Made by a program: the position numbers and the translations under genes. From an uncultured Anaerolineales bacterium (GTDB lineage Bacteria > Chloroflexota > Anaerolineae > Anaerolineales > RBG-16-64-43), in contig CAZFPL010000001.1 in assembly GCA_964521085.1 (NCBI GenBank), positions 35,469 to 99,468 of the forward strand: a stretch of DNA of 64,000 nucleotides, in the 5' to 3' direction. Below the pieces are notes generated by a model, which saw only the letters and a program-made list of their open reading frames with translations, had not been told where the DNA came from and ran no database searches. Numbering within the stretch: position 1 is the first letter of the stretch; each line of letters opens with the position of its first letter. Below, in pieces: positions 30,702 to 64,000 of this stretch.

Positions 30702-30745
30702 CAAAAACCGATGAGGACCGCGTGCGTTCCCTGAGGTGGGATTTC

Positions 30746-34549: not shown

Positions 34550-34619
34550 GGATCCGCGTTGGATCGCCTCCTGGGCTTTAATCGTTATCCTGACACGGTT
34601 TCGCTCGATGAGGATGCCC

Positions 34620-39203: not shown

Positions 39204-40328
39204 ATGCACAGTAAGTCTGTCAGTCTTATCGCGGCATCCGTGATTCTTTTTATTTTTGCATCCTCATGCAAACCCAAGGTTCCCGTCTCGGAGCCGCTTG
39301 CGGTTTCCAGGATCGCGGCCGGCGGGAACCAAACGTGCATAGTGGATAAGGGGAAAGCGAAATGCTGGGGGGAAAACGACGGCGGGCAGTTGGGAGAAGG
39401 GACGTTCGAGAATAGAAACACGCCGGTCGATGTGACGGTCCTGGCGGACGAAATTTCCTTTATCTCGGTGGGATACAAGCACACCTGCGTGTTGACCAAA
39501 AACGGCGACGTGATGTGCTGGGGAGGCGGTTGGACCGGCCGCTTGGAAGGCGGAACGGATGGAGGATATCGGGCGGTTGCCGCGGGTGGTTTCCACACCT
39601 GCCTGGTGACTCGCGCCGGAGGTGCGCAGTGCTGGGGTGGAAACGCCCTTTCCGGTATGGGAAACGATACGGAGGGAGATCCCGGCACGCCCGCCGATGT
39701 TACCGGATTGACCGACGGGATCCAGGGAATAAGCGCGGGGGTGGAGTTCTCCTGCGCAATCCACAACGGGGGCGCGATATGTTGGGGATTGAACGACGCC
39801 GGCCAATTGGGTGACGGAACCTTCACCAGTTCTTTGGATCCAAGGGAAGTTCTCGGATTGACGTCCGGGGTTAAAGCCATCGTTGCGGGAGTGTTCCATA
39901 CCTGCGCGCTGACGGCGGGGGGAGAGGTGTGGTGTTGGGGAGAGAATTTATCGGGAGAACTGGGTGACGGCTCCTATCAAAGCAGCCCGGTCCCGGTGAA
40001 AGTGGGCGGTTTGGAGGCAGGAATCCAAGCGGTTGTCGTCGGGGGCAGTCATACCTGCGTGTTAACCAAAGCGGGCGGTGTGAAGTGCTGGGGAGGGAAT
40101 GCCGGCGGCCAATTGGGAGATGGCACGACGACCGATCGGAATGTTCCCGCGGATGTCAGCGGGTTGACCAGCGGTGTGGTTGCCATCGCGGCGGGAGGAA
40201 GCCACACTTGCGCGATGATGAGTGATGGTTCGGTGAAATGCTGGGGGCAGAACGAAGAAGGCCAGTTGGGGAACGGCACCAATACAAGCAGCAACACGCC
40301 GGTAAACGTTACCTTCCCGGCGGCTTAG
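39204..40328 (+). CDS. RCC1-repeat lipoprotein, one propeller
   Basis: GGAGG SD; lipobox ASSC; 7 repeats, one shortened. Confidence 0.88.
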   Translation: MHSKSVSLIAASVILFIFASSCKPKVPVSEPLAVSRIAAGGNQTCIVDKGKAKCWGENDGGQLGEGTFENRNTPVDVTVLADEISFISVGYKHTCVLTKNGDVMCWGGGWTGRLEGGTDGGYRAVAAGGFHTCLVTRAGGAQCWGGNALSGMGNDTEGDPGTPADVTGLTDGIQGISAGVEFSCAIHNGGAICWGLNDAGQLGDGTFTSSLDPREVLGLTSGVKAIVAGVFHTCALTAGGEVWCWGENLSGELGDGSYQSSPVPVKVGGLEAGIQAVVVGGSHTCVLTKAGGVKCWGGNAGGQLGDGTTTDRNVPADVSGLTSGVVAIAAGGSHTCAMMSDGSVKCWGQNEEGQLGNGTNTSSNTPVNVTFPAA

Positions 40329-41599
40329 GGGAAAGTCGGAAACGATCCCTCGCCGGCGCCGGCGGAAATCAAGATCGCATCATCCTGTCCGGCGCCGGCG
40401 CTTTGCGTGTTGCCGGCGATATATACCCGGTCTCGGAACAGGGCAATCCCGTGGGCGCCTTCGTTTTCCGGGCCGCCCCACATCCGGGACCAAATCAGAT
40501 TGCCGTCGCGGTCATACCGCAGGAGTACGAAATCCATTCCGCCCCCGCCGCCGTAGCTGTCGGAAGCGCCGGCGATGAAAATGTCCCCCGACGGGCCGAT
40601 CGCAACCGCTCGCGCATCCTCACTTCCCTTTCCTCCCCACAACTGTTCCCAAATCAGTTTCAGGTTTTTATCCCACTTCCTGAGAAAAATCTGCCCGCCG
40701 TTGCCCCGGTCGACCGTCAACCCGACGGTGAACAGGTATGTTCCGTCGCTGGTCATCCCCAGTGCGTCCGTGCCGATCGGACCGTCCCAGACGGTATGCG
40801 AAAGGTATTCGCCCGTTTGCTTCGAGAAACGGGCAAGCAAACCCTGTCCGCCCAGGAGATAATTTTCTCCGTCGTACCGTCCGGCGACATAAATGGCATC
40901 GGCATCCACCACCATCTGTCCATCCGCCTGGTCCCATCCGCCTCCGCCCCAGGTGTTCGCCCAGATTAAATTCCCCTGCCGATCCAATTTCAGGACGGCG
41001 AGATCGTTCCCGGTTGTTTCTCCGGTTGTCCAACCGGAGAGATATAGATAATCTCCATCGGCGACCAGTCCGTCCACTTCTTCATAGCCGAATCCCTGGC
41101 TCCAGGTGAATTCCCATGCCGCGCTGCCGTCCTCGGTATTTAGCGCCAACACTGCCATGTCCGCTTCCATCAGGTTGACGGCCGAGGTGTAGGTGAGTCC
41201 GCCGACGTAGGCGTAGGCTCCGGCGACGGTTACGATAAATGCTTTCTCCATAAACTTTCCACCCCAACGCGTCTGCCAGAGTTCGGTTCCATCCGGGGCG
41301 AATTTGTAGATCACCATATCGGCGAACGGTTCTTTGACCGCCTGTTGAAATGAAGCGAAGTAGATGTTTCCGGCGCGATCGACATCCACTCCCCAGCCCT
41401 GATCCAGCTTGGATCCGCCGCGGAGGACGAACCAGGGGGTAAACGAATCGCCGACGGGGGATTGGTTTGCAGTCGATATCGAGGAGGCGGAAAACAGACT
41501 GGGCGTGATTGGACGCGCCGGTGAGGCGATACAGCCGAAGATCATCAGCTGCATGACGGAGGCCAAGAAGACGATTTCGGGAAGCGGTTTCTTCTTCAT
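40325..41599 (-). CDS. Beta-propeller (SBBP-like) lipoprotein
   Basis: Lipobox IFGC; repeats of K(F/L)D..GNLIW...WGG...(D/E).A..(I/V). Confidence 0.75.
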   Translation of the reverse strand: MKKKPLPEIVFLASVMQLMIFGCIASPARPITPSLFSASSISTANQSPVGDSFTPWFVLRGGSKLDQGWGVDVDRAGNIYFASFQQAVKEPFADMVIYKFAPDGTELWQTRWGGKFMEKAFIVTVAGAYAYVGGLTYTSAVNLMEADMAVLALNTEDGSAAWEFTWSQGFGYEEVDGLVADGDYLYLSGWTTGETTGNDLAVLKLDRQGNLIWANTWGGGGWDQADGQMVVDADAIYVAGRYDGENYLLGGQGLLARFSKQTGEYLSHTVWDGPIGTDALGMTSDGTYLFTVGLTVDRGNGGQIFLRKWDKNLKLIWEQLWGGKGSEDARAVAIGPSGDIFIAGASDSYGGGGGMDFVLLRYDRDGNLIWSRMWGGPENEGAHGIALFRDRVYIAGNTQSAGAGQDDAILISAGAGEGSFPTFP

Positions 41600-41714: not shown

Positions 41715-42722
41715 TCAAGCGGTCGGTAAATACCGCTTGAATGCCTCCATCTGGTGTAAAACGAGCTCGGCTCCGATGGCCAGGCAGCCGACCGGTTCCT
41801 CGGCCAGGTAGGCCGGAATTCCGGTGACGTCGGTCAGGTAGCGGTCCATGCCGCGCAGCAGGGCTCCGCCGCCGCACAGCATGATGCCGCGGTCGATGAT
41901 GTCGGACGTCAATTCCGGGGGGGTATGTTCGAGGGTGGTGCGGACACAGCCGACAATCTCCTCCAGCGGTTCCTCGAACGCTTCCACCACATCCGCCGTG
42001 GAGATGCTGACCGTCCGGGGAAGATTGTTGACCTGATCCCGGCCCTGGATTTCAAGGCTTTCGTTCGGCTCGATGGGTGTGGCGGCGCCGATCCGCAGCT
42101 TGACTTCCTCCGCCACCATTTCGCTGATCACCACGCCGTATTTCCGGCGGACGTAGGCGGCCAGCAGTTCATCCAGCCTTCTCCCGCCCATGCGGACGGT
42201 GTTGGCCACCACCGGGCCGTTCATCGTGATCACCGATGCCTCGGCCACGCCCCCTCCCAGGTATACGACCATGTTGCCCGAGGGGGTGGAAATCGGCAGG
42301 CCGGCGCCGACCGCGGCGGCGAGAGTCCGCGTAACCAGGAATACTTCGCGGCAACCGGCGCGCAGAACCGCCTCGCTGGCGGCGCGGCGCTCCACGCTTG
42401 TGATCCCGTGCGGAATGGTCACCATCGCCCGCGGCTTGAAGAGGCTGATCGCACCGCACACTTTGCGGATGAACCAGGTTAGAAGCACCTGGGCGACTTC
42501 GAAATCGGCGATCGCACCGTATTGAAGCGGATGAACCACTTCATACCCTTCGGGCACCCGGCCGTACATGTGCCGGGCCTGCTCGCCCACTTCCACGACT
42601 TTCTGTTCATCCACGTCGATCACCACCATCGTCGGTTCGCTCAGGACGATCTGCCCGCCCTCGGCGATGATGGTGTTGACTGTGCCCAGGTCGATCCCCA
42701 GTTCTTTATAGAATAAAGCCAT
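41715..42722 (-). CDS. mreB: MreB/Mbl-like actin homologue with degenerate catalytic motifs
   Basis: GIDLGTVNT, IADFE, ITSVERRA, PPELTSDI, GGGALLRG; the usual EEP and DIGGGT motifs read TRT and YLGGGV. Confidence 0.88.
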   Translation of the reverse strand: MALFYKELGIDLGTVNTIIAEGGQIVLSEPTMVVIDVDEQKVVEVGEQARHMYGRVPEGYEVVHPLQYGAIADFEVAQVLLTWFIRKVCGAISLFKPRAMVTIPHGITSVERRAASEAVLRAGCREVFLVTRTLAAAVGAGLPISTPSGNMVVYLGGGVAEASVITMNGPVVANTVRMGGRRLDELLAAYVRRKYGVVISEMVAEEVKLRIGAATPIEPNESLEIQGRDQVNNLPRTVSISTADVVEAFEEPLEEIVGCVRTTLEHTPPELTSDIIDRGIMLCGGGALLRGMDRYLTDVTGIPAYLAEEPVGCLAIGAELVLHQMEAFKRYLPTA

Positions 42723-42858
42723 ATTGTGTCAGGTCACTCTCCCGGCAATAGTGCAGGTTTTTTCTTGGGTTCGGGGGGTAATTGTACCCTATTAGACCGG
42801 GGCGGTCTTAAGACTGTCTCGATCCGGCTTCGATTACAATTATGCTTCGGGAGTGGAA

Positions 42859-45177: not shown

Positions 45178-45194
45178 TGGGAGTTAAAAAAAAT

Positions 45195-45777
45195 CTACGT
45201 CCATTGGGTTTCTGAACAAGTGATTTGGCAGGCTTCACATACAAAAAAGTAAAGCGTGGCATAGTATTCGATACTACTGTTGAATGGATCCGCCAGATCC
45301 TTGTTCCGATTGTGGATATCCAGCGAATCGGATGAAAGTTGAAGGATGAACCGCATCGGCTTCCGGCATTTCGGGCAGGAAGGATGTTCTGGACTCTGCA
45401 GCCAGACCGGATCGCCTCCCGCCAGGGTCGGCGTGTAATCGAGATTCTCCGGCACATTTCCTTCCCCCCCACGCAATCGAGGCTTTGCTCTCGGGATTGC
45501 ATTGGTCTTCGATAAATCCGCGCTTGTCAAAATGGCGCGCCCGCAGGATTTCCACCGCCGGTTCGCCCTCGAATCGAACAAAAAACGGATCTTCATAGTA
45601 ACAATCCAAGCATCGGATGATGCGATACCATCCGCTCTCGCCGCGGCCGACCGCCTTCTTCGGGACTACGAGCAGCTCCTGACAAGGTTTCTTGCACGAG
45701 ACGCAGGTCAGGGATGAAGGGGTGAGTGACACGATCGTATCGGTTTCTCCAGCCGGGCGAAGGTATCCGGTATACAT
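45195..45777 (-). pseudogene. Cys-rich YwqG/DUF1963-like protein split at a G7 homopolymer
   Basis: 5' ORF (CVSC, CLDC) and 3' ORF (GGDPVWLQ..CPKC..MRFILQL..LYFFVCEAC) join into 193 aa if one G of the run at 45464-45470 is removed. Confidence 0.65.
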
Positions 45778-45829
45778 TCATGTCTCCGAGTAAACCGAGG
45801 CGGTCTACAAGACCGCCTTGGTCTTTGGA

Positions 45830-46513
45830 CTATGCCATCCTGCGGATTCTGACTTCGATTCCCGTTTCATTCTTCAATAGCGCCGCAACCCGTGCGATGT
45901 CGGTTTCTCCGTAATGATACGGGTAGAGAATCCGGGGCCGGAACGATCGGACGGCGTCCGCCGCCATTTCGGGCGACATCGTATAGGGCAGATTTACCGG
46001 CAGAAATGCGATATCGATATCCTTGAGATTTCTCATTTCGGGAATGTTTTCGGTGTCCCCGGCGATGTACACCCGTATATTCCCGAACGTCAGGATGTAG
46101 CCGTTGCCTTCCCCCCGGATATGGAAGGGCTTCCCGTTTCCCCTTTTGTGGACGATATTGTAGGCCGGCACCGCTTCGACTTTGATATCGTCGACCGTGC
46201 GCGTGTCGCCGTTTCCGATCAGGATCCAACCGGCGAGTTTGGAGATGCAAACCATGGGGAGCAGCAGCTGTGTCTTTTCCGTGCGAACTCCGGCGACCGC
46301 CTGCGGATCGCAATGATCTCCGTGTTCGTGGGTAATCAGGATGATGTCCGCCTTGGGAAGGGCGGAGTAATCCGCCACTTCGCTGAATGGATCCGCGTAG
46401 ATTTCTTTTCCGGCGAAGGTGAACCGCAGGCTCCCATGTCCGAGGAAGGTGATCGTGAGATCGCCCGCGGAGGTGGGAATGGAATCTGATTCGAACGGTT
46501 CTTTGGGAGTCAT
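45830..46513 (-). CDS. MBL-fold metallo-hydrolase
   Basis: LGHGS, ITHEHGDHCD, YIAGDT, PYHY. Confidence 0.9.
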   Translation of the reverse strand: MTPKEPFESDSIPTSAGDLTITFLGHGSLRFTFAGKEIYADPFSEVADYSALPKADIILITHEHGDHCDPQAVAGVRTEKTQLLLPMVCISKLAGWILIGNGDTRTVDDIKVEAVPAYNIVHKRGNGKPFHIRGEGNGYILTFGNIRVYIAGDTENIPEMRNLKDIDIAFLPVNLPYTMSPEMAADAVRSFRPRILYPYHYGETDIARVAALLKNETGIEVRIRRMA

Positions 46514-46557
46514 CTTTTTTTCCTTGCTGATGCAGAAAATCCGGATGCCGGCCGCGG

Positions 46558-47430
46558 TTATTTTGCTTTCAAGAATCTTGTTATGGATTCCCCGACGCGT
46601 CCGGGTTGGTCGAAGTGGAGGAGGTGGCCGGCATCCGGCACCGGTTCTGCTTCAATGCCCGGGATAAGGGCTTTGGCCTGCTGCAACGCGGCACGGGCAT
46701 CGTACAGGATTTCCTTCTCGCCCACCAGGAGGAGAGTCGGAATGTGAAGCTGTTTCCATTCGGCCGTCTCGATCACAGGCCGCATCACGCTCTTGGAGCG
46801 CAAAGCCGTCACGCCGGTTACGAACGCTTCGTGGACGGGATCGCCGCGGGTATATCCTTTGACGGACGCCCCGGCCAGGAACCACTCCGCCGCCCCGCGC
46901 GAGGAGGAAAGCAGCATCGGCATTCCGCGGATCATCCAGTGAATGGTGAAGGGGGCGAGCGGCAGGCCTGGGCACAGCAGCACGAGACGGTTGACCCGTT
47001 GGGGGAAGCGCAGGGCAAAATTGACAGCCAGGAATCCCCCGTACGACATCCCCAGGAGCTGTGTTTTTTCGATTTTTAAACCCGTGAGAAGGTCGTCGAG
47101 CCAGTCGGCATAATCGACGCGGCTGGCGGGCATCCGGTCTGGAATGCTTTTCCCCACATCGCCCATCACGTCCACTGCGTACACCCGGTTGGTCCGGCTC
47201 AGGCCGGCGATATTGTGGAACCAGTCGGTCGAGCTGGTGAAATTTCCGGGCAGGAGAATCAAGGGAGGGGCGGCGACCGCACCGCTGGCGTTGACATGTG
47301 TTTTTCCGAAGCGGGTCGGTATAAGTATGCCGGTGGACGGCACAGGCCACCGGCTGAAGACCGCATCGTAGGCTGCCATGTAATCGGCCTCGCGGATGGG
47401 ATTTTTATAAATGGATAGTGCATTCGACAT
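46558..47430 (-). CDS. Alpha/beta hydrolase (carboxylesterase-like)
   Basis: GMSYGG nucleophile elbow, GEKE, AGHLL; CAGGAG SD. Confidence 0.9.
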   Translation of the reverse strand: MSNALSIYKNPIREADYMAAYDAVFSRWPVPSTGILIPTRFGKTHVNASGAVAAPPLILLPGNFTSSTDWFHNIAGLSRTNRVYAVDVMGDVGKSIPDRMPASRVDYADWLDDLLTGLKIEKTQLLGMSYGGFLAVNFALRFPQRVNRLVLLCPGLPLAPFTIHWMIRGMPMLLSSSRGAAEWFLAGASVKGYTRGDPVHEAFVTGVTALRSKSVMRPVIETAEWKQLHIPTLLLVGEKEILYDARAALQQAKALIPGIEAEPVPDAGHLLHFDQPGRVGESITRFLKAK

Positions 47431-47542
47431 GACGGAACTCCTGTTTTGACGTTTATTTTCCGAGGGGATGTACTCTGAGCGCCTTGTGGATATTGCGCAT
47501 ATCCTCAACCGTTCGCCGGGGCGGATGCCCCCGAGTGGAATT

Positions 47543-48277
47543 TTATTTCGATCCCGCGGGCGTCAATTGCGCCAGATAATTCCCGTCTTCTTTTTGAGAA
47601 ACCACCCGGCAAGAGAACCCCGCTTTCCCGGCGTGCTCGGTAAGGGTTTCCGCATCCACGTGCAGCCAGCCGAAGAGCGGCCCGCGCAGCCCCTTGTATT
47701 CGAATTGCATCCGGATTTCTCCGAAGTAGCGGCTTGCCCGGCGGTTGGCCTCGTGATACGACAGATGCATGGGGTCATTGGTCCGCCGGACATCGAGCGA
47801 GTCAAACAGAAGCTGGCCGTTCGTTTTTATCAAAGTGCGGGCATGGCGGAGGAACCGATCCAATCCGGAAACTGTTTCCACCATCCCGATCCCGTGCAGC
47901 ATCATCAACAGGGTGTCGCAGGGGCTGCCGTTGAAGTCGTACACATTCACAAGCCGTGTGCTCACGACACCCCGCTGCTTCATGATCTCAACCGCCTGGG
48001 GCGAAATATCGATTGCCAGGACGCTTAATCCCCGTTCCTGCAGGGCCAGGCTGTGGCATCCGGTGCCCGCGCCGATGTCGAGCACGTCCCCTGCGCAAAG
48101 CTCCATCGCTTTCTGTTCGATTTCGGAGAATGCGGAGAATTTCCGGAAGAACACCGCGGCCGGCAGCGTACTCGTAAATCCATCATCGCGGTGGACGATG
48201 ATCGTCGCCTCCTTTTCGCCGTGCTGAAAATCGATCAACGCCTGTCCAAATGGATCCATCGATTTCGTATCCATCAT
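47543..48277 (-). CDS. Class I SAM-dependent methyltransferase
   Basis: VLDIGAGTG, AIDIS, MMLHGIG. Confidence 0.9.
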   Translation of the reverse strand: MMDTKSMDPFGQALIDFQHGEKEATIIVHRDDGFTSTLPAAVFFRKFSAFSEIEQKAMELCAGDVLDIGAGTGCHSLALQERGLSVLAIDISPQAVEIMKQRGVVSTRLVNVYDFNGSPCDTLLMMLHGIGMVETVSGLDRFLRHARTLIKTNGQLLFDSLDVRRTNDPMHLSYHEANRRASRYFGEIRMQFEYKGLRGPLFGWLHVDAETLTEHAGKAGFSCRVVSQKEDGNYLAQLTPAGSK

Positions 48278-48325
48278 TCTTCCTCCGGCAGAATTTCGAA
48301 TGATAAGGACCGCACGTCTGCAAGG

Positions 48326-49093
48326 TTAATCCAAATCCAACGCGGTCGCCCGGCGCGGCATTCTCCAAAGGATCAGGGCCAGGTTGATGAGTAGGACGAC
48401 GGTGAAAACCGCTTCTCCGCCCTGGATGGGAAAATTCAACAACTCTTTATCCTGCATAAGATTGAAGACGAAGTGAAATCCGATCACCCATCCCAGATTT
48501 CCGCGCCGGATCACCACCTCGCCGAACAGGAGGCCGATCAGAAAGGCGTAGAGGAAAGCGAACAAGTAGTAATCCGGATTCAGAAAATGGAGAGCGGAAA
48601 ACACCACCGCCGAAACGACCATCGCGGTCCGCACGCCAAGCGGATTCTTGAGGATCAAGAGAATGTATCCGCGGAACAGAGTCTCCTCAGTGAGGGCCAC
48701 CAGCAGCCAGTATACGAGCATGCCCAGGAGGGAAAGAAAGGATAACCCCCGGCCGATCTCCCCGGGATCGATCTCACCGGTGAGGAACACCATTCCCGCC
48801 GCGACCAACCCGATCGACAGGCCCCCCCATACCAATCCCAAGAGGAGGTCTTTCCAAAAGGCGTCATCCCTGAGGTTGAGTCCGATAAAGGCCGGGGATT
48901 TTCGAGAGATCAGCAGTTCCGAGCCGACCGCCGCGAGTATCGCCAGGTTAAATGCATATTCCCCGCCTGCCTCGATATTCAGCGCGGTAGCAAGCAGGGC
49001 GAAAAGGATCGCGTAGATGAATGTAAGAACAATGACCCGCACGATTTTCCACCCCGACCGCAATTCTTTCTGATTGGTAAACAACACATTCAT
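48326..49093 (-). CDS. CPBP (CAAX/Abi) family intramembrane metalloprotease
   Basis: EETLFRG, FSALH, GFHFVFN; multiple TM helices. Confidence 0.9.
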   Translation of the reverse strand: MNVLFTNQKELRSGWKIVRVIVLTFIYAILFALLATALNIEAGGEYAFNLAILAAVGSELLISRKSPAFIGLNLRDDAFWKDLLLGLVWGGLSIGLVAAGMVFLTGEIDPGEIGRGLSFLSLLGMLVYWLLVALTEETLFRGYILLILKNPLGVRTAMVVSAVVFSALHFLNPDYYLFAFLYAFLIGLLFGEVVIRRGNLGWVIGFHFVFNLMQDKELLNFPIQGGEAVFTVVLLINLALILWRMPRRATALDLD

Positions 49094-49237
49094 CGTTAAT
49101 ATCTCCACAAAGGGGTTTTTTCCTCCACGTCGGAAAACCGTAGTCTGTCCTTCGTCAGAGGGATGTCCGGAAATTATATCCGATGAGAACGATTTCATCG
49201 TGGGAGGGGCTTGTTTTCATCCGATGGTTGCTTTTTG

Positions 49238-50278
49238 TTAAGACATCGAAATGACTTCGTACGTCTCCCATATGAATAGCTGAAAAGCCATTCCATTCTC
49301 CCGCAGGGAACCGTCTTCATTCATCAGCGCTTTCGCTTTGGGCCCGTCGATGCTGTACCAAACCGCGTTCGACAGACCCAACTCCAGCACTTTTCCCATC
49401 AGTGCGGTCACGACAGCGGGATCGATTTCGTGCTGCCCGATTTCGTTGGTGATGACGGGCAGCCGGATCTGATCCTGCAGGAAGTCCACCGTTTCTTCCA
49501 AGGCTTTGGGGTCTTCGATATACCAATGGAAATTAATATAGTCCGCGCCGGAAGCGGGGATGACTGCCAGAAGAGCTTTTCCCCTTTCGATTTGTTCGCG
49601 GGCCGCCTGAGAATCCAGCCGGTTTTGTTCGTCGGGAGAAAAAACCCGCTGCGAAAACTCCTCCGCGCTGGAGTCCGCTCCGATTTCGAGGTAATGGTCA
49701 TAGCCCAGCGATGCCGCCAGCAGGCTGACCATGCCCCCGTCGGTGCACGGAATGCCGCGGGAATGCGCTGCGTCGCAGGCTGTTTTCAATTCCTCTCCAT
49801 ATTCCGCGGGGCTGCCCTGGTAGAACAAGTCGGAGTTCTCTTCATTTTCCACGACCAGCAGGGAGGGGCGGCACCGGTCCAGAATGGATCCGACCGTCTC
49901 GGCAAAACGGGATAAATCCTGCGGAGGCGTGGATGCCTGCCCGCCGCTGCCTTTGTTCCGCACGGTCAGGATGACCTTTAAGCCGGCCCGTTGGGCGGCG
50001 TCGCATTCTTCGCTGGCACCCGCCCAACTCTCGACGAAAATGGCATTTGGGCGGAAGGAGGCCGCTCCCAGCTGCCGGACGAGTTCCAGGCGTTTCTCGA
50101 TCGTCATCTTCGGCGCTCCGATCATCAGCCCGAAGGGATTATCCCGGATTTCCGAAGGCGATGCGGGACTGGATGCAGGAGCGGACGGCGTCGCGGGTGG
50201 AGAATTCCGGAGGAAATCCAACGGTTTGCATCCTATGAGTAAAAGGAGGAAGAGGATGGCAATTCTGTGAAAGCGCAC
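49238..50278 (-). CDS. Putative clan GH-A glycoside hydrolase lipoprotein
   Basis: GTG start, lipobox LIGC; ENEEN acid/base-like and ITNEIG nucleophile-like motifs, NFHWY. Confidence 0.65.
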   Translation of the reverse strand: MRFHRIAILFLLLLIGCKPLDFLRNSPPATPSAPASSPASPSEIRDNPFGLMIGAPKMTIEKRLELVRQLGAASFRPNAIFVESWAGASEECDAAQRAGLKVILTVRNKGSGGQASTPPQDLSRFAETVGSILDRCRPSLLVVENEENSDLFYQGSPAEYGEELKTACDAAHSRGIPCTDGGMVSLLAASLGYDHYLEIGADSSAEEFSQRVFSPDEQNRLDSQAAREQIERGKALLAVIPASGADYINFHWYIEDPKALEETVDFLQDQIRLPVITNEIGQHEIDPAVVTALMGKVLELGLSNAVWYSIDGPKAKALMNEDGSLRENGMAFQLFIWETYEVISMS

Positions 50279-50366
50279 GTTTTCTAATCCCTGCCGTCGC
50301 CCGCGGATGGACGCCGGGCTTTCCAGTGAATCCCCGGAAAGAATCCCGGTAAAAATCACCTGCCCA

Positions 50367-51116
50367 TTATTGTGCGGCCGGCGAATATCCTGCAGCGTCG
50401 GGGGTGGCTCCGATGTTTCGATCGTCATCGGTCATGCCGGAAATTCCCAAAAACCAATACCCATCGTGCAGAACATGCTCGCGAAAGTGCATTTCAATCG
50501 GGGAAGGGAAGATCGGACCGTCGGTCACTAAGGTGTGATATTCGCCGGACTCGCCGGAAGGATCGACCCCGAGTTTCTCCAACTCCGAGACGGCGTTCTC
50601 ATCGATCATTCTCCCCAGCCATTCCGATCCCAAGGTATCGGCCTTGGTTACGACGATGGTCGCCTTGAAACCAAGCCGGATGAATTCCTCTAGCAATTTC
50701 CGGCGCGGGTGTTTCCACAGCGGATGGCGGGCGCGCATGCCGCGTGCGCCGCATACGCGCCGGCACCAATCGCGGTGATCTTCTATGTCGATGTCTCCAA
50801 ACACGCCGGTTTCGATACCGTCTGTTTGGAATTCGCCAAGCATCTCCGAAAACACCGTTTCATAGGCCTCCCACGACGCAGATCGAAAATCGATCGGAAT
50901 CCCGATTTGCCGAGCCTGTTCCTCAAGCAGGTATCGGGGCAGCCCGTGAGAGCGCGACGCGCGGCCATCCTCTCTCATCATGGTAAACAACCGCTTGGGA
51001 GAGCCGCCCTCCCGGATCGCCCGGTGCAGGGCCAGGCACGAATCCTTCCCTCCGCTCCACGAGCAGAAGAAAGGATGCCCTGCGACGGATTCGTTATTCG
51101 GTTCGGACATTTTCAC
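50367..51116 (-). CDS. Diphthamide synthase-like (DUF71/ANH) PP-loop ATPase
   Basis: SWSGGKDS, RSHG, FGDID, DPSGESGEYHTLVTDGPIF. Confidence 0.88.
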   Translation of the reverse strand: MKMSEPNNESVAGHPFFCSWSGGKDSCLALHRAIREGGSPKRLFTMMREDGRASRSHGLPRYLLEEQARQIGIPIDFRSASWEAYETVFSEMLGEFQTDGIETGVFGDIDIEDHRDWCRRVCGARGMRARHPLWKHPRRKLLEEFIRLGFKATIVVTKADTLGSEWLGRMIDENAVSELEKLGVDPSGESGEYHTLVTDGPIFPSPIEMHFREHVLHDGYWFLGISGMTDDDRNIGATPDAAGYSPAAQ

Positions 51117-51202
51117 CTGGATGGTCGGATGTGCACCCTCGCGCCTTCGGCCTATTTATCCGGCCGTGGCGTGCACAGGGCGGCTCACCGCATTCCATCG
51201 AT

Positions 51203-52405
51203 CTATCTCGCCTCCTCGAACCGGAAGCGCAAGACGGCCAGAACGTAGGCTCCCAGCGCGTAGAGTCCCAGGATTCCTGCGGGAACAAGAATGGTTTTCC
51301 AATCCGCGCCGCGCAGGATGATATCCTGAAATCCTTGGATTGCCCATGCGCTGGGCGTCGCATGGCCGATTGCGGCGTAGGTCTTGCCGGCCAGGTCGAG
51401 GGAGATAAACGCCCCGCCCAGAAATATGAACACCAGCGTGCCGGCCATCACGAGAAGGACCACCTGGTTTTCATCCCTGGCCAGGGCGCCGATGAGTAAA
51501 CCGAAACCGGCCGACCACAGGGCGAGTGCGCCCGCCATGAGCAGCACCGCCGCCGGATCATGCCAGTAGTCCAGGCCGGCGGCGAGTTGGCCGAAGATGG
51601 TTAAAAGAATCAGCTGTAGGAAGCACATCACAAACATCGCCAGGGTGTGTCCGGCGATAATCTCGGCTCGGCGGATGTCTGTCGTCAGCATGCGGGCCAG
51701 CGTCCGCGAGCGGCGCTCGGCCAGCAGGAGGTAGCCGGGCGTGATCATCCCGATGGTGACGAAGATGACCATCATGCCTGGTGAGGCCTGCGCGAAACCG
51801 TCCGGCTCGCCGGCGGCGAGCCCGGAGGACTCCAAGGAAACCTTGACGCGCGGATCCCCCCACGCGCGGACCGCATCCGCAAGCGACTGGAGCAGGTATT
51901 CCTGCCGCGCCGCATCACTTTCGAAACGGCCGTGCACTTCGGCGCTCAACCGCGCAGCCTGCACCGCCCCGAGCAGCCGCGTCGCCGCAAGCTGGATCGC
52001 CCGGTCCGCCGCCTGCCCGGCGGGCGTACCGCGGTCGATGATCAGGGTCATTTGGGGCGATCCTCCCCCCAAAGTCGATTCGCTGAATCCGTCCGGGATG
52101 ACGATCGCTGCGGCCGCTTTTTGCGAACGGACCAGTTTGTCAAGCGCCGCCGTGTCCTTTTGCCCCGGGTCTGTCGGATGAATTGTCTCCGAATAATCGA
52201 GGAGCGTTTTGAAATACGCGCCGAGGACGCCGTCATCCTCCACGACTACGGCGACCGGCAGGCGCGGATCGTCCCCGCCGTTCTGATCGAAGATGACGCC
52301 CATCAATCCGGTGAAGAGCACGGGCATGATGAGAAGGAACAATGCGGATTTCTTCTGCCGCAATATTTGAGAAAGATCCTTCATCGCTATGTGAAAGATA
52401 CGCAT
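51203..52405 (-). CDS. ABC-2 type exporter permease
   Basis: N-terminal TM, large extracytoplasmic loop, five C-terminal TM helices, ERRSRTLARM. Confidence 0.9.
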   Translation of the reverse strand: MRIFHIAMKDLSQILRQKKSALFLLIMPVLFTGLMGVIFDQNGGDDPRLPVAVVVEDDGVLGAYFKTLLDYSETIHPTDPGQKDTAALDKLVRSQKAAAAIVIPDGFSESTLGGGSPQMTLIIDRGTPAGQAADRAIQLAATRLLGAVQAARLSAEVHGRFESDAARQEYLLQSLADAVRAWGDPRVKVSLESSGLAAGEPDGFAQASPGMMVIFVTIGMITPGYLLLAERRSRTLARMLTTDIRRAEIIAGHTLAMFVMCFLQLILLTIFGQLAAGLDYWHDPAAVLLMAGALALWSAGFGLLIGALARDENQVVLLVMAGTLVFIFLGGAFISLDLAGKTYAAIGHATPSAWAIQGFQDIILRGADWKTILVPAGILGLYALGAYVLAVLRFRFEEAR

Positions 52406-52430
52406 GGTGTTTGCCTTTCAAAAAAAGGAT

Positions 52431-53696
52431 TTAGGCGAATTTTGTGTTCATTTTTCTGAGGCCGATCAGCAGGAAGATCAAACCCATTCCTGTTGCCACG
52501 GCGGCTGGAACGACCGCTTCCCCCAAGCTGCCGGCGTGCATGGCTGCCGTAAATCCGCGCACGATCCAACCCTGGGGCGTGAACAGGTTGATCGTTTTAA
52601 AAAGCGCGGGCACATTGGCAAACGAGGTGGTCATCGTCCCGCCGGCCATTCCGGTGAGGATCACCGCGCCGCCCATGACCAGGAATGCCTGGCGGGTGGA
52701 ATGCATGAAGGCAATCAACATCACCCCGAAACCGCCGGCGGAGACAACCAACCCCAGCCCGTTGAGGATGACCGGCATGGGGTCGCCCCAATCAATCCCG
52801 AACAGAAGCTTCCCGATCCCGATCAACAGGACGGTCTGAAGGCTCAAGAGGAGCGCGACGGCGGCGAATTTACCGGTTAGGATAGCGGATTTTGTTGCGG
52901 GAGTCCGGAATAAGCGTGCCAGGGTGCCCTGCTCCTGTTCGCGAAGTATCGACTGAGCCGAAATGGCTCCGACAAAGAAGGCGAAGAAGACCAGCATGCC
53001 GAGCATGACAGGACCGATCTGTGCCTTCATGACGGATTCGGACTTTTCCGCTTTTGCCGAGGTCTCGTAGTGAAGGGCTGGATGGACATCCCGCTGGAGG
53101 CTCTCCCCGATCGATTGCGCCCACTCCCCATACCGTTGCATGACGATCTGGCGCGCAGCGGGGTCGAACGGTGCGCCCAGTTCCGCGGCACCCGCCCCGG
53201 CCGTGTCGGCGGCGATGAGTGCGCCGGCGAATCCGTCGAGGAAATTGGTCACGATGTCGCGGACGACGGCGGGGCCGAGCGTGAGTGCCGGATCATGATA
53301 GATTTCAATATCGGCCCGCTCCTCCTCGTGGAAAAGGGCCGCGGTGAAACCGGGCGGGATGATCACGGCGACGTCTGTTTGGCGATTGTCCACGGCGGCG
53401 CGCGCGGCGGCTTCGGATTTTTCCTCGGTGACTTCGACCAGATCCCCCAATCCCTCAGCATGAAACATGTCTACGAGCAAATCCCCGGCCAGGAAATCGG
53501 GATATTCCTTCACGGGGCGGTCGAGGTTTACGATCCGCACACGCGTTGCCTGCACGTCGAATCCCTGCGAAAGGTTGCTGAACGCCAGGTAGGGCAGGCC
53601 GGCTTCCAAAAGCGGCAGGATCAGCATAAAGGCCAGCACGATGGGACTGCGCAGCGAACGTGCCAGGTCTTTGAGGGTGATGGATGCGATGCTCAT
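52431..53696 (-). CDS. ABC-2 type exporter permease
   Basis: Same topology; EQEQGTLARL, FTPQGW. Confidence 0.9.
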   Translation of the reverse strand: MSIASITLKDLARSLRSPIVLAFMLILPLLEAGLPYLAFSNLSQGFDVQATRVRIVNLDRPVKEYPDFLAGDLLVDMFHAEGLGDLVEVTEEKSEAAARAAVDNRQTDVAVIIPPGFTAALFHEEERADIEIYHDPALTLGPAVVRDIVTNFLDGFAGALIAADTAGAGAAELGAPFDPAARQIVMQRYGEWAQSIGESLQRDVHPALHYETSAKAEKSESVMKAQIGPVMLGMLVFFAFFVGAISAQSILREQEQGTLARLFRTPATKSAILTGKFAAVALLLSLQTVLLIGIGKLLFGIDWGDPMPVILNGLGLVVSAGGFGVMLIAFMHSTRQAFLVMGGAVILTGMAGGTMTTSFANVPALFKTINLFTPQGWIVRGFTAAMHAGSLGEAVVPAAVATGMGLIFLLIGLRKMNTKFA

Positions 53697-53705
53697 GATT
53701 TTCTC

Positions 53706-54650
53706 CTAATCCCGCAGCGCTTTGCCGGTCAAATGAAGGAAGACCGCTTCCAGATCCGGTTCCTGGACGTCCATGCCGGTGATGTGCGTCTCCTCCCGGG
53801 CGGCGGATTCGAACAGGGTGGGCAGGACGCGCGTGCTGTCCTTCACCAGCAGACGGACGCTTCCATTCTCTTCACTCACCGAATGCACTCCGGCCAGCAT
53901 GCGCCACATCCCGAGCAGGCCGGCCGGTTTGCGGCTGAGGGTCAGCGAGATGCGATGCAGCCCGCCGACAATCCGGATCAGTTCGCCGTGCGTGCCTTGG
54001 GCGATGAGTTTGCCGTGATCCATGATCGCGATGCGGTGCGATAGTTCCTGCGCTTCTTCCATGTAGTGGGTGGTGTAGAGCACGGTGACGCCGCGGGCGT
54101 TGAGTTCTTTGATCCCGTCGAGGATGCGCCGCCGGCTTTGCGGATCGATGCCGACGGTCGGCTCGTCGAGGATGACGATTTTCGGCTCGTGGAGCAGGGC
54201 GATGCCGATGTTGAGCCGCCGCTGCATGCCCCCGGAATATTTCCCGGCGCGTTCGTTCCGACGGTCGGTCAAGCCCGTCAGGTCGAGGACTTCATCGACG
54301 CGGCGTTTAAGCCGGCTTCCGCGCAGGCCGTACATGCGGCCCCAGAAGACCAGGTTTTGCTGCGCGCTCAGGTCGTCGTAGATTGCGATCTCCTGCGGGA
54401 CGACGCCGAGATTCCGCTTGACGGATTGCGGCGCGCGGAGGATCGAGTGGCCCATCAGCAGGGCGTCGCCCGCGCTCGGCGGAAGAAGGCAGGAAAGCAT
54501 GGAGATGGTTGTGCTTTTCCCGGCGCCGTTGGGGCCGAGCAGGCTGAAGATTTCGCCTTCCCGGACGGTGAAATCGAGGTTTTGCACGGCGGTGAAACCG
54601 CCATAGGTTTTTCGCAATCCTTGCACTTGGATGGCATACGAGTCGGTCAT
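53706..54650 (-). CDS. ABC exporter ATP-binding protein
   Basis: GPNGAGKS, YSGGMQRR, LDEPTVG, THYMEE. Confidence 0.95.
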   Translation of the reverse strand: MTDSYAIQVQGLRKTYGGFTAVQNLDFTVREGEIFSLLGPNGAGKSTTISMLSCLLPPSAGDALLMGHSILRAPQSVKRNLGVVPQEIAIYDDLSAQQNLVFWGRMYGLRGSRLKRRVDEVLDLTGLTDRRNERAGKYSGGMQRRLNIGIALLHEPKIVILDEPTVGIDPQSRRRILDGIKELNARGVTVLYTTHYMEEAQELSHRIAIMDHGKLIAQGTHGELIRIVGGLHRISLTLSRKPAGLLGMWRMLAGVHSVSEENGSVRLLVKDSTRVLPTLFESAAREETHITGMDVQEPDLEAVFLHLTGKALRD

Positions 54651-54704
54651 GGGCGGTCCTTTCTGTGTTGCGCCCATGGTAGCGGTTGGGAGGGTGATTT
54701 GTGT

Positions 54705-54720
54705 TCACCCGATCGGGTGA
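54705..54720. promoter_or_regulatory. Perfect 16-bp palindrome, candidate LuxR-type operator
   Basis: TCACCCGATCGGGTGA, 55 bp upstream of the ABC operon start. Confidence 0.5.
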
Positions 54721-54770
54721 TCGGGGAGGGTGGTTCTGTAACCATGGATTACATGGTTGTCCCTAGTGAA

Positions 54771-54868
54771 AAAATCTTTCTCGCCTCAAAGAATCTCAAA
54801 GATTCCTTCGCGTTCTTTGCGCCCCCCGGCCCGACCACCGAGGGCGGGCTTTGCGGTAAAAAGGTTTT
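54771..54868. repeat. Empty nonamer inverted-repeat element (left arm degenerate)
   Basis: CTCAAAGAATCTCAAAG ... CTTTGCGCCCCCCGGCCCGACCACCGAGGGCGGGCTTTGCGGTAAAAAGGTTTT. Confidence 0.8.
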
Positions 54869-54925
54869 ATAGGGGCTCGGATATGGAATTAATCGTTGGA
54901 AGGAAACAGGCGGAGGACACTGAAC

Positions 54926-57553
54926 TCACAAAAGGTTCAATTCCTGCGCACGCAAGAGCGCCTGGCTGCGGTTGTGGACTCCCAGTTTGGTGAAGATGCT
55001 CTTAACGTGCGCCTTCACCGTGTTGAGAGAAACATAAAGGCTTTCGGCGATTTCGGGATTGGAACGGCCTGCCGCCAGCAGGCGCAGCACTTCCAGCTCG
55101 CGTTCGCTGAGTGGTTCTACCAGCTGAGATTGACCGGTGGGAGCAGGTCGGGCGATGCGTTCGGCCAGGCCGGATTTCGGCGCCAGCCTGCGGATCAGCG
55201 CCGCCGCAGGCTCTCCCTCGTCAAGGTATATCCGCGTATAACCTTCCGGCTCGGACAATGAAATGGCACGCTCCAACTGTTCCTTCGCGCGCGGATCATC
55301 CGGACGCTGCACCGCAAAATTGACCGCTCGCAGCAGGCTGGATTCAATCTCCGAGGTGCGGCTGCCGCTGCCGGCCGCTTTCTGCTGGATCCGTTCCAGT
55401 AAGCTGTCAGCCTGATCGAATTCTCCCTCCGCGGTCAACACGCGTGCCAGGGTAAGCAGGCCGGCCTCGCGGTAGAAGACCGGGGTCTCATCCTTGGAGT
55501 ACCCGCTCTCGCGCGCCCAGCGGGCGGCCGCTTCCGGATTTCCGGAGGCCAGCCAAATCCGCGCCTGCTGCAGCATCACGGAATCCAACGACCAAGCTGA
55601 AATCTCGCTGGCCACGCGGCGGGCTTTCTCAAGGATCGCGCCGGCGGCATTGAACTCGCCCCGCCCGCGCTGGATGCGCGCCAGCACGATGTAGGCGGTC
55701 ATCAGGAGATCGGCTTGGCCGAGCAGTTCGCACATTTCGACGCCCTTGACCGCATATTCCAGGGCTTCGTCCAGGCGGTCCCATTCGCGCAGGATATCCG
55801 CCAGGTGGGCGTAGGCATAGCCCGGCGCGAGCATGACGGATGAATCGGTCAGGCATAGGCCGTCTTCGTAGATCTGATAGGCGTCGCGCAGACGCCCCCG
55901 CGCGGCGGAAATCTGTGCCAGCCCCACGCTGCCGAGCATGGCATTGAATTGGTTTCCGCCTGCCAGGCTGAGTGATTTGGCCCGTTCAAACGAACCAATG
56001 GCTGATGAAAAATCGCCGGCATACCCGAAGGCAGCTCCCTGAATCATTGCCGTCGTGGCGCTGATGACAAAATCCTCCGGCGTCAGCCGCCCCAGGGCGT
56101 CGCCGGCATGGCCGATGGCTTCCGGAATAGCTCCTTGTAGGAAACCCACTTGCGCGCGGATGGCGGCGGCATACCCTCGGATTCGGTCTGCTTCGGCCGC
56201 GGGAGTCTTGCCTGCCTGGAGCGCCGCCTCCGCCTCCTGCAGGCGGGATTCGATCTTGCCGGCCTCCCCGGTCAGAATGAGCAGCCAAGCATCGAGCACG
56301 CACAACCAGGGGTGATTTCGGATTGTTTCGTCCGGGAGGGCGCGCAGCCATTTAATAAGTGTTCCGAGTTCGCTGCGGGCCAACATGTCGAAGAAGTTCC
56401 GATCAACTATCTGCGCCGCGCGTTCAAACTCCTTCGCAGCCAGGGCATGGTGGATCGCCCCGGCAGGATCATTGTTTTGTTCGAACCAGTCCGCCGCGCG
56501 GCGGTGCAAATCGGGTGGCGCAGCGGGTGATTTCTCGCGCAGTTGCCGTACTAGCAGATCCGAAAAAAGAGGGTGATAGCGGTACCAGCGCCGATCCTGA
56601 TCCAGCGGGAGCAGGAAGAGGTTGGCCGACTCAAGCCGCTCGAGCATCGTTCGCCCGTCTTGCCGGCCGGTCAGGGAGTCGCACAATGGAGCGCACAGCC
56701 GCTCGAGGATGCATGTGTTCAGCAAAAAGGAGCGAATTTCCTCCCTCTCGCGCTGCAGCACTTCTTCCAACAGATAATCCAAGACAAAGCGGTTGCTTCC
56801 GGTGAAGGCCTGGATAAAACCGGAGAGATCCGGATTGCCCTGCATCGAAAGCGCGGCCATCTGCAATCCGGCGATCCAGCCCTCGGTGCGTTCCTCGAGC
56901 GCGGCGATGTCGGCCGCGGAAAGCGGGAGTTTCATCGACCGGGTCAGGAACTCGGCCGCTTCCTCGGGCGTGAAACGCAGATCCGAAAGGCGGATCTCGG
57001 CCAATTGCCGGCGCGCGCGCAAGCGGGCCAGGGGCAGGTCCTCGGGGTCGGTGCGGGTGCCGATCACGATTTTCAGCTCTTCGGGCATGTGCTCGATGAA
57101 GAATCCCAATCCTTCATGGATCGGAGCGGCGGTCACCAAGTGCAGGTCATCGAGCGCAAGCAGGCAGGGAGAGTCGGAAGGCGCAGCGGAAAGCTCATTA
57201 ATCAGGATTGTGAGAATCGCTTGCGGCGGGATGGGACGCGAGGCGGTCAACATCGGCACGATATCCCGGCCTGCCGTCGGCCACAGCTTCTGGAGCGCGG
57301 CGGTGAAATACGACCAGAAGCGCACCGGGTCGTTGTCTCCCTCGTCGAGTTCCAGCCAGGCCGCGGGTCGTCCGGAGTCGCCGAGCAACCAGTGCGCCAT
57401 TAATGTCGTTTTCCCGAATCCTGCGGGAGCCGAAAGCAGGATCACCCGGCCTTCCACGCCGGCCTCAAGCTTTTCCAGAAGCCGCGGGCGGAGGACCGTC
57501 CCGCTTCGAATCGGGGGAATGACCAATTTTGTGGCTACGAGAGGAAGTTGCAT
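54926..57553 (-). CDS. MalT-like STAND ATPase/TPR/LuxR transcriptional regulator
   Basis: APAGFGKTT, LDDLH, TEGWIAGL, YRYHPLF, C-terminal LSERELEVL..SNPEIA..TVKAH. Confidence 0.93.
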   Translation of the reverse strand: MQLPLVATKLVIPPIRSGTVLRPRLLEKLEAGVEGRVILLSAPAGFGKTTLMAHWLLGDSGRPAAWLELDEGDNDPVRFWSYFTAALQKLWPTAGRDIVPMLTASRPIPPQAILTILINELSAAPSDSPCLLALDDLHLVTAAPIHEGLGFFIEHMPEELKIVIGTRTDPEDLPLARLRARRQLAEIRLSDLRFTPEEAAEFLTRSMKLPLSAADIAALEERTEGWIAGLQMAALSMQGNPDLSGFIQAFTGSNRFVLDYLLEEVLQREREEIRSFLLNTCILERLCAPLCDSLTGRQDGRTMLERLESANLFLLPLDQDRRWYRYHPLFSDLLVRQLREKSPAAPPDLHRRAADWFEQNNDPAGAIHHALAAKEFERAAQIVDRNFFDMLARSELGTLIKWLRALPDETIRNHPWLCVLDAWLLILTGEAGKIESRLQEAEAALQAGKTPAAEADRIRGYAAAIRAQVGFLQGAIPEAIGHAGDALGRLTPEDFVISATTAMIQGAAFGYAGDFSSAIGSFERAKSLSLAGGNQFNAMLGSVGLAQISAARGRLRDAYQIYEDGLCLTDSSVMLAPGYAYAHLADILREWDRLDEALEYAVKGVEMCELLGQADLLMTAYIVLARIQRGRGEFNAAGAILEKARRVASEISAWSLDSVMLQQARIWLASGNPEAAARWARESGYSKDETPVFYREAGLLTLARVLTAEGEFDQADSLLERIQQKAAGSGSRTSEIESSLLRAVNFAVQRPDDPRAKEQLERAISLSEPEGYTRIYLDEGEPAAALIRRLAPKSGLAERIARPAPTGQSQLVEPLSERELEVLRLLAAGRSNPEIAESLYVSLNTVKAHVKSIFTKLGVHNRSQALLRAQELNLL

Positions 57554-57663
57554 ATCAGGATTTTAACATCAGCGGGGAAGAATCGGAAAGCGGCTGCATG
57601 ATCTTCTTGCACTCTGCGGCCATCTCCTTTCCCGGCGGCATTCCGGATAACCGGATCACCATG

Positions 57664-59226: not shown

Positions 59227-59377
59227 ATGAATCTTTAGTGATTAAGGTCTATCGATAAGACGATTTTCACCATCCATAAATCTGTTTTCCCCCCGCAGCG
59301 GTTTCCAGGCAATCAAAGGCGGAGATCAAACGCTTCTCTGCCCGACGTGGAGAATCAGCCTCCGAAAACGGCGGATG

Positions 59378-59788
59378 CTACTTGCGGTATTTCTTCGCCG
59401 CTTCCAGCCGCAATTGCGAACGCCGCAGAGATGAAAGCGCTTTGAGGTAAGCTTCGGTCTTCTCGGCAGGAGCATTTTTAAGCAGTTCCTCCGCCCGCGA
59501 CTTGGCGGCCTCGGCTCGCGCCACGTCGATTTCTTCGACCCGTTCCCCCACGTCCGCCAACACGGTCACCTCATCCGGCAGGACTTCCATAATCCCGCCC
59601 GCGATTGCGAAGGCTTCCTCTTTGCCTGCGTATTTAACCAACAGGATGCCGTACGAAAGCGTCGTCAGAAGCGGCGTGTGGTGGGGGAGAATTCCAAGCA
59701 CGCCCTCGCTTCCGGGGGCGACAACCATGTCCACGTCTCCGGAAAAAAGAGGTCGATCCTGGGTGACGATGTCGCAGCGAATGGGCAC
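59378..59788 (-). CDS. atpC: F1 ATP synthase epsilon subunit
   Basis: GVLGILPHHTPL, GGIMEV, EEIDVARAE. Confidence 0.96.
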   Translation of the reverse strand: MPIRCDIVTQDRPLFSGDVDMVVAPGSEGVLGILPHHTPLLTTLSYGILLVKYAGKEEAFAIAGGIMEVLPDEVTVLADVGERVEEIDVARAEAAKSRAEELLKNAPAEKTEAYLKALSSLRRSQLRLEAAKKYRK

Positions 59789-59806
59789 TGGAGAGTCCTT
59801 TTCTTT

Positions 59807-59879
59807 CCCTCATCCTGTCGGAAGACCACCGACTCCCTTCTCCCAGCTTATGCTGGGAGAAGGGTTGGGGATGAGGGGG

Positions 59880-59882
<3 letters not shown>
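59807..59882. repeat. CCCTTCTCCC-type palindromic element, copy 5 (atpD-atpC spacer)
   Basis: CCCTTCTCCCAGC-TTAT-GCTGGGAGAAGGG, internal GTCGG-AAGACCA-CCGAC hairpin; abuts the atpD TAA. Confidence 0.85.
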
Positions 59883-61425
<1,543 letters not shown>

Positions 61426-62340: not shown

Positions 62341-62346
62341 TCGTGT

Positions 62347-64000
<1,654 letters not shown>

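Follow-up and report, generated by a model that had tools for sequence, protein, structure and literature searches.

How does an actin-like MreB come to lack the residues that hydrolyse ATP, and is such a protein a spare copy or the ordinary mreB gene of its lineage? This question is raised by an mreB gene (41715..42722, minus strand) in a 64,000-nucleotide stretch of DNA from an uncultured Anaerolineales bacterium (GenBank assembly GCA_964521085.1, contig CAZFPL010000001.1, positions 35,469 to 99,468 of the forward strand), all of which was analysed and is referred to here as the window. An initial annotation, made from the letters alone, had described the gene as an MreB paralogue without either of its catalytic acidic residues. 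We find that the residues are indeed replaced, that the replacements are shared by a whole clade, and that nothing we found marks the gene as an additional paralogue.

An MreB with an altered catalytic site

The open reading frame (ORF) encodes 335 amino acids from an ATG start and covers the full actin-like fold. It matches Pfam family PF06723 (MreB_Mbl) over profile positions 2-326 of 327 (E 8e-108; 360.5 bits, cut-off 27) and the NCBIfam model NF010539, "rod shape-determining protein MreB", with 378.6 bits (cut-off 293), and at 359.6 it falls slightly under the TIGR00904 cut-off of 365.75. The closest solved structures in HMMER searches are the MreB proteins of Caulobacter crescentus, Geobacillus stearothermophilus and Thermotoga maritima (E 2e-85 to 2e-82), with the C. 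crescentus structure 4cze matching at E 2e-85. An AlphaFold2 model, computed from an input alignment of 41 sequences, has a mean predicted local distance difference test score of 87.7 and a predicted template modelling (TM) score of 0.84, and depicts a four-subdomain actin-like fold that Foldseek superposes on T. maritima MreB with a TM score of 0.95-0.96 (1jcf, TM 0.96, root mean square deviation 1.4 Å). The Pfam, NCBIfam and PDB matches and this predicted fold uphold the original assignment to MreB, and the ORF is modelled as encoding an intact and complete MreB fold.

Residue positions were equated with those of Escherichia coli (Ec), C. crescentus (Cc) and G. stearothermophilus (Gs) MreB, such that Arg132 corresponds to Ec E143, Cc E140 and Gs E136, Tyr154 to Ec D165, Cc D162 and Gs D158, and Val159 to Cc T167 and Ec T170. 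At the position of the catalytic glutamate, codon 132 (42329-42327, minus strand, as for all codons given here) is CGG and encodes Arg within LVTRTLAAAVG. The phosphate-2 aspartate, which contributes to Mg2+ binding (Ec D165), is replaced by Tyr within VVYLGGGVA, encoded by TAC at codon 154 (42263-42261). HMMER alignment to 4cze places "flvtrtlaaavgaglp" against "glidepmaaaigaglp" and "mvvylgggvaea" against "mvvdigggttev", and codons and alignment together confirm that both acidic residues have been lost. A third loss had gone unremarked: the catalytic threonine position carries Val159 (GTG, 42246..42248), followed by A160 and a retained E161. The catalytic motif E...T-X-[D/E], which is conserved in 95.8% of non-Spiroplasma MreBs (PMC9597168), reads R132...V159-A160-E161 in this protein, the final acidic residue alone remaining.

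The nucleotide motifs are present, namely DLGT of phosphate-1 (D11, G13 and T14; codon 11 is GAC, 42690..42692), GGG of phosphate-2 (156-158) and GGGALL of the adenosine site (284-289). As the initial annotation had stated, the phosphate-1 and adenosine motifs remain, and they are invariant throughout the clade described below. In addition, residues L94-F95-K-P-R align with the L-F-K-P-R loop of T. maritima MreB, in which we take L93/F94 to be the membrane-insertion residues; F95 is invariant in the same clade. It is by such a hydrophobic loop, or by an amphipathic helix at the N-terminus, that MreBs attach directly to membranes, and with ATP they polymerise into antiparallel double filaments.

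One clade carries the substitutions, under purifying selection

A search of 5.8 billion proteins, clustered at 90% protein identity, returned 24 clusters at 69-92% identity to the window protein, followed by a gap down to at most 61%. Tyr154 is found in 24 of these 24 clusters and Arg132 in 23, the remaining one (P0007) having Gly, and we refer to the group as the R/Y clade. At least two metagenome-assembled genomes (MAGs) among the matches listed in a GTDB genome scan, L005 (93% identical) and the partial L006, have the same R/Y state. Across 29 clade sequences, Tyr154 is universal (TAC or TAT) and Arg132 occurs in all but one (28/29; CGG, CGC or CGA), the sole exception being the Gly132 of P0007/L092, encoded by GGC. 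The clade is monophyletic in a neighbour-joining tree, and its host lineage is soil and sediment Chloroflexi. The initial annotation had left it to a phylogeny whether the substitutions mark a clade; with 24 clusters and at least two MAGs sharing them and with the monophyly of the group, they do.

Mean column identity in the clade alignment is 78%, with Y154, D11, G13, T14, G156-158, E161 and G284-286 invariant and position 159 varying among V, A, T and G. The ORF is intact, at 335 amino acids, in every full-length clade member, and two independent Logan contigs encode an identical protein. The ratio of nonsynonymous to synonymous substitution rates (dN/dS, pairwise Nei-Gojobori) is 0.051 between the window and L005 and approximately 0.07-0.15 in most other clade pairs, reaching up to 0.28 in pairs with L004, a frameshift-prone long-read assembly. 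In L004 and L090, both long-read assemblies from ENA, the upstream atp genes are broken into short ORFs and the mreB ORF is intact; the split atp ORFs are most likely assembly frameshift errors. Because dN/dS is low and synonymous codons occur at both positions, Arg and Tyr are maintained by selection, and the R/Y substitutions are fixed in one clade and held there by purifying selection. The annotation had also raised the possibility of changes unique to this assembly with relaxed selection; instead, relatives at 69-93% identity share the state, at low dN/dS.

The two catalytic-site changes do not stand by themselves. Six well-conserved columns differ in the R/Y clade from canonical MreBs and from the other Anaerolineales orthologues alike. 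Two of them are the catalytic positions E132 (to Arg) and D154 (to Tyr), and a third is the proline following the catalytic glutamate, P133, which has become Thr, Ser or Ala (Thr in the window protein). The others are Ec R74, now Tyr, His or Phe (His64 in the window protein), V115, now Ala, and the connect-2 residue G319, now Glu, within the C-terminal "ARGGG" helix. The clade has kept 52 near-universal MreB columns, and in sequence terms the signature changes look like coordinated remodelling of the cleft. In a wider survey of the 143 MreB cluster representatives (50% identity) nearest to the query, the state of Ec R74 is modestly associated with that of the catalytic residues (Fisher p ~0.003, uncorrected for phylogeny), which we take as no more than a lead.

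The gene occupies the atp-linked mreB locus of the Chloroflexota

In the window, the genes for F1 ATP synthase, atpA-atpG-atpD-atpC (59360..63993, minus strand), are the ancestral upstream neighbours of mreB and share its orientation. They were located by tblastn with L001 proteins (atpA 63993-62350, atpG 62322-61444, atpD 61277-59883 and atpC 59788-59360, all on the minus strand). Between atpC and mreB lies an insert of approximately 16.6 kb (42723-59359), which consists of a main block (45195..58938, minus strand) and also holds an RCC1 gene (42853-45177). Its genes match, by Pfam, MBL-fold, hydrolase, methyltransferase, CAAX protease, Diphthami_syn_2, ABC-2 transporter, MalT/LuxR regulator and DUF362 families. 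The insert is absent from relatives with approximately 70% identical MreB and is partly common to L005.

The undisturbed arrangement is found in clade members at approximately 70% identity. In P0018, P0010 and P0023, the last from "Chloroflexi bacterium RBG_16_64_43" (GCA_001796965.1), atpC is followed after 38-50 nucleotides by mreB on the same strand, then by a convergent rex and by obg-nadD, and P0014 has the same atp-mreB-rex-obg-nadD arrangement with a few additional genes. Over the loci L001, L087, L089 and L090, the spacing between atpC and mreB is 3-50 nucleotides. The nearest relatives without the R/Y state, P0083 (Q/Q) and P0030 (E/D), occupy the identical locus, and among the matches listed in the GTDB scan, mreB lies at most 4 kb downstream of atpC in 22 of the 30 Chloroflexota loci whose upstream flank is complete. 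From its placement in the order atpAGDC, mreB, rex, obg, nadD, the window gene is therefore an orthologue of the ordinary, phylum-wide atp-linked mreB of the Chloroflexota. To our knowledge, synteny between ATP synthase genes and mreB has not been described. In the loci L007-L054, L062 and L078 of the GTDB scan, the order atpAGDC followed by mreB is kept by most of the sampled Chloroflexota, and it was also seen in one Eremiobacterota MAG and one Thermoanaerobacterales MAG (L078).

No terminator-like site is predicted between atpC and mreB in L001, and for this reason co-transcription of the two genes is possible there. Promoter scans found nothing, and a search for RNA runs containing the sequence found none, the runs that hold it being DNA metagenomes only. 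Pfam matches to mreC or mreD were found neither among the scanned ORFs of the window, of which several short ones were left unscanned, nor among the called genes of the relatives' loci. Both genes are likewise absent beside canonical Chloroflexota mreB loci; their absence is a trait of the phylum and therefore no argument against membership of the MreB family.

This placement bears directly on a reading in line with the initial annotation, in which the protein is an accessory pseudo-ATPase and, as a paralogue, acts as co-polymer, cap or regulator of a canonical MreB whose gene lies elsewhere in the genome. Systems with several MreBs, one of them a low-ATPase member, do exist, as in Spiroplasma (MreB1-5), and the visible part of the genome is 64 kb, which leaves room for a further copy outside it. 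Set against this, the locus of the gene is the ancestral one beside the atp genes, conserved in most sampled Chloroflexota and the site of canonical MreB in other members of the phylum, and we saw no separate clade of paralogues. Chloroflexota MreBs that are not linked to atp genes cluster with the linked ones of related taxa in protein searches and in the neighbour-joining tree and form no clade of their own. Using tblastn, no second mreB was found in the window, nor in tandem or nearby in the fetched loci that were checked, and no two mreB loci came from one assembly among the matches listed in the GTDB scan. We therefore do not retain the term paralogue, and we consider an accessory role beside a canonical MreB unlikely.

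Several candidates for a second gene were tried and rejected. The unlinked Chloroflexota MreBs of L022, L031, L024 and L029 were considered as paralogues of an mreBCD type, and their neighbours, by Pfam, include no MreC or MreD. For L022, a protein search yielded a single tight group from the Caldilineae, and the atp-linked protein of L038 is one of its members. We also rejected the idea that the different active-site types seen in the top 120 matches are paralogues within one genome, as P0083 and P0030 share the atp-rex-obg-nadD locus. Nothing relevant emerged from searches of the literature on how many MreB copies, or which variants, occur in Anaerolineae and Chloroflexota.

Turnover of catalytic residues across the Anaerolineales

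Outside the Anaerolineales, atp-linked MreB is canonical and reads EDTTE at five key columns. Orthologues within the order read ED[A/C/V]SE, EDVTQ, E[V/T/N/G/I]VTQ, Q[D/H/Q]VTQ, QC..Q and RY..E, with the R/Y clade and the large "..VTQ" group as sisters. On the alignment of these orthologues, the R/Y state is one result among several of a broader turnover of the catalytic site in the Anaerolineales. The threonine appears to have been lost first, with the glutamate and the aspartate following, and paths of single-nucleotide changes exist for both of the latter, from E through Q to R and from D to Y directly or via H or N. Among P0025-P0120 and the loci L007-L015, L026, L089 and L090, at approximately 57-66% overall identity, at least 10 residue combinations were counted at the catalytic columns, including QQVTQ, QHVTQ, EVVTQ, QCASQ and EDCSE.

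In the survey of 143 representatives, 94 retain the catalytic glutamate and 114 the phosphate-2 aspartate; for the phosphate-1 aspartate the count is 135 of 136. Arg stands at the glutamate column in three representatives, each with the aspartate retained, and Tyr at the aspartate column in none. Within this sample, it is not rare for divergent MreB-like clusters to have lost catalytic residues, and the combination of Arg and Tyr is specific to the R/Y clade. The search for representatives also brought up proteins from outside the window with more than one MreB portion. P0241, of 1010 amino acids, has an N-terminal Ser/Thr protein kinase and two MreB domains, the C-terminal of which reads Q/A, and P0242 and P0245 (approximately 490 amino acids) have two MreB stretches each. 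These may be real fusions or artefacts of gene calling.

Predicted handling of ATP

Because the phosphate and adenosine motifs are invariant and the membrane loop is retained, we read the R/Y MreB as a protein that would still bind ATP and polymerise on the membrane. It would be without a general base, without the residues that position water and short of one ligand for Mg2+, and its hydrolysis of ATP would be very slow. Its filaments would then last longer, and their turnover would be set by nucleotide exchange or by partner proteins rather than by intrinsic hydrolysis. On balance we infer, from the sequence and by analogy, that the protein probably behaves in this way, as an ATP-binding, polymerising MreB of slow hydrolysis and long-lived filaments.

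The analogy is to proteins altered at the same positions. In G. stearothermophilus MreB, the mutation E136A lowers ATPase activity 55-fold and gives the most thermostable ATP complex, with normal polymerisation and slow disassembly, and D158A lowers ATPase activity 3-fold (bioRxiv 10.64898/2026.07.23.740262). A companion 2026 preprint describes assembly as driven by ATP binding and disassembly as driven by hydrolysis and ADP exchange, with nucleotide exchange taking place inside filaments. Spiroplasma MreB3, which naturally lacks E...T-X-[D/E], shows barely measurable release of inorganic phosphate and still polymerises (PMC9597168). By these precedents, "hydrolysis-poor" is a reasonable prediction for the R/Y MreB.

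Three points weigh on the other side. Arg and Tyr are bulky, and in the same G. stearothermophilus study bulky side chains placed in the cleft by G14E and G160R abolish nucleotide binding (bioRxiv 10.64898/2026.07.23.740262), a precedent by which ATP binding is not to be assumed. The arginine might lend stability to the transition state, in which case some hydrolysis would survive. Finally, one clade member has Gly132, which makes whatever role Arg plays less than indispensable.

Another reading is a site that has been rewired, with Arg132, possibly together with Tyr154 and Glu319, providing an alternative catalytic or Mg2+-independent arrangement and a competent ATPase or GTPase. Approximately six clade-specific changes co-occur at conserved columns, and no fewer than four fall within the catalytic motifs or next to them. 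Neither Tyr154 nor Glu319 varies in the clade and Arg132 hardly does, a pattern that resembles remodelling more than random loss, and the T-X-[D/E] pair still has its E161. The natural Gly132 member speaks against such a design, as does the freedom of the catalytic threonine position to vary within the clade (V/A/T/G). The unrelated residues of the sister lineages (Q, H, C, V, T, N, G and I) suggest a group-wide relaxation of constraint on catalysis. We regard a rewired, competent enzyme as rather improbable.

More doubtful still is a protein in which Arg and Tyr fill the cleft and no nucleotide is bound, leaving a constitutive, nucleotide-independent polymer or scaffold. The loss of nucleotide binding in the G14E and G160R mutants is the precedent for it, but the invariance of D11, G13, T14, G156-158 and G284-285 would be hard to explain without binding of the phosphates and the adenosine. 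A gene decaying under relaxed selection, or substitutions introduced by sequencing or assembly error, can be dismissed, as the ORFs are intact, dN/dS is mostly 0.05-0.15, independent Logan assemblies encode the identical protein and the substitutions extend across the clade, and nothing was found in favour of either.

Neighbouring genes

The gene divergent from mreB (42853-45177, plus strand) encodes an RCC1-repeat lipoprotein of 774 amino acids with 14 repeats by Pfam RCC1 and a lipobox-like N-terminus (...FLASCGSS), in agreement with the gene and orientation first reported. A connection between the two genes fared less well. The adjacency is kept only in L005, where the RCC1 neighbour is 71% identical, and clade members at approximately 70% identity have mreB directly after atpC instead; the window itself holds seven RCC1 genes. 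Because conservation is limited to L005 and RCC1 genes are so numerous, we regard the pairing as incidental and reject a functional link. The seven RCC1-repeat genes fall within 30 kb (15476-18073, 23729-26134, 30698-32056, 32078-34549, 34608-36113, 39093-40328 and 42853-45177), a marked local expansion of a mostly eukaryote-associated repeat. Two that were inspected have N-termini of lipoprotein or secretion type, and a similar RCC1 cluster is present in L005.

On the other side of mreB, 115 nucleotides downstream and on the same strand, lies a gene for a beta-propeller lipoprotein of 424 amino acids (40325..41599, minus strand; N-terminus ...MIFGCIAS) with weak PQQ_2/DUF5122 matches. In L091 and L092 the gene immediately following the R/Y mreB is a 65% identical homologue, and L005 lacks the gene. 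No terminator-like site is predicted between it and mreB, and a functional link between the two is possible but unsupported. Elsewhere in the window, 11315-14393 (minus strand) and 21042-21803 (plus strand) contain hypF and a hypB/cobW-type GTPase, of hydrogenase maturation, and an aminoglycoside 3-N-acetyltransferase family gene.

Significance and comparison with known systems

What ATP hydrolysis contributes to MreB function is an active question, as the 2026 preprints attest. At the very positions that laboratories mutate in order to kill hydrolysis, the R/Y clade has fixed Arg and Tyr and its sister groups have fixed a dozen other states, which makes these lineages a natural allelic series. 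We suggest tentatively, as a possibility and not as the expected outcome, that the R/Y protein is the sole MreB of filamentous, peptidoglycan-walled Anaerolineales, and that the order's single atp-linked MreB is shedding its hydrolysis machinery under strong purifying selection. By the aligned residues, the states of such a shedding would be E to Q or R, D to N, C, H, Q, V or Y, and T to V, A or C. If this is the case, the clade would be a natural demonstration that MreB-guided morphogenesis of rods and filaments needs no ATP hydrolysis by MreB itself, hydrolysis being dispensable for shape determination in the whole clade. Filament turnover would then be set by exchange with the ATP/ADP pool, which is of note given the placement of the gene behind those of ATP synthase. 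If, instead, the protein is one of two MreBs, Spiroplasma MreB3 would be joined by a second, independent case in which an MreB with low ATPase activity has specialised alongside an active partner. On the practical side, the presence or absence of MreB serves to mark rod shape when MAGs are named, and this altered-site MreB scores slightly under the cut-off of TIGR00904.

Compared with canonical MreB (4CZE-4CZM, 1JCE-1JCG and 7ZPT/8AZG), the R/Y protein is 42-45% identical, of equal length and superposable with TM scores of 0.90-0.96, and it shares DxGT, GGG, GGGxLL and the L-F loop. It differs in the replacement of Glu by Arg, Asp by Tyr, Thr by Val, Ec R74 by His, Tyr or Phe, Pro by Thr and the connect-2 Gly by Glu. 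Mbl of Bacillus subtilis (9a51_A) is among its closest structural matches (TM 0.94, 41% identity), but the catalytic residues of Mbl are canonical. On the B. subtilis chromosome, mbl too is found near the atp operon.

The other atp-linked MreBs of the Anaerolineales (P0083 with Q/Q..VTQ, P0030 with E/D..CSE, and L007-L015 with Q/C) share the locus and the length of 335 amino acids at 51-61% identity. Their catalytic residues are altered as well, but never to Arg132 or Tyr154, and the sister group has Gln161 where the R/Y clade has Glu161. The engineered mutants (E136A and D158A of G. stearothermophilus/B. subtilis, and E. coli D165) affect the same two positions, with filaments stabilised in E136A and a mild defect in D158A. 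They are single changes to Ala made in the laboratory, whereas the R/Y clade has two large residues fixed by selection and accompanied by second-shell changes.

The best functional analogue is Spiroplasma MreB3 (7E1C/7E1G), with its natural loss of the motif, very slow release of phosphate and nucleotide-dependent polymerisation, all of which are properties of MreB3. The two proteins differ in their residues, with 29% identity (7e1g) and with Glu to Asp, Thr to Lys and Glu to Ser or Thr in MreB3 against R, V and E in the R/Y protein, and loss of the phosphate-2 aspartate has not been reported for MreB3. They also differ in setting, as MreB3 belongs to a set of five paralogues in a swimming bacterium without a cell wall and the R/Y gene is an atp-linked orthologue in a walled, filamentous phylum; by its residues the R/Y protein is not of the MreB3 type, and the likeness is one of function only. 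The R/Y protein is a new natural variant among low-ATPase or altered-site MreBs and not a new type of system, and the more interesting point is that the catalytic centre has turned over across the whole order, in a protein that may be the only MreB of these filamentous bacteria.

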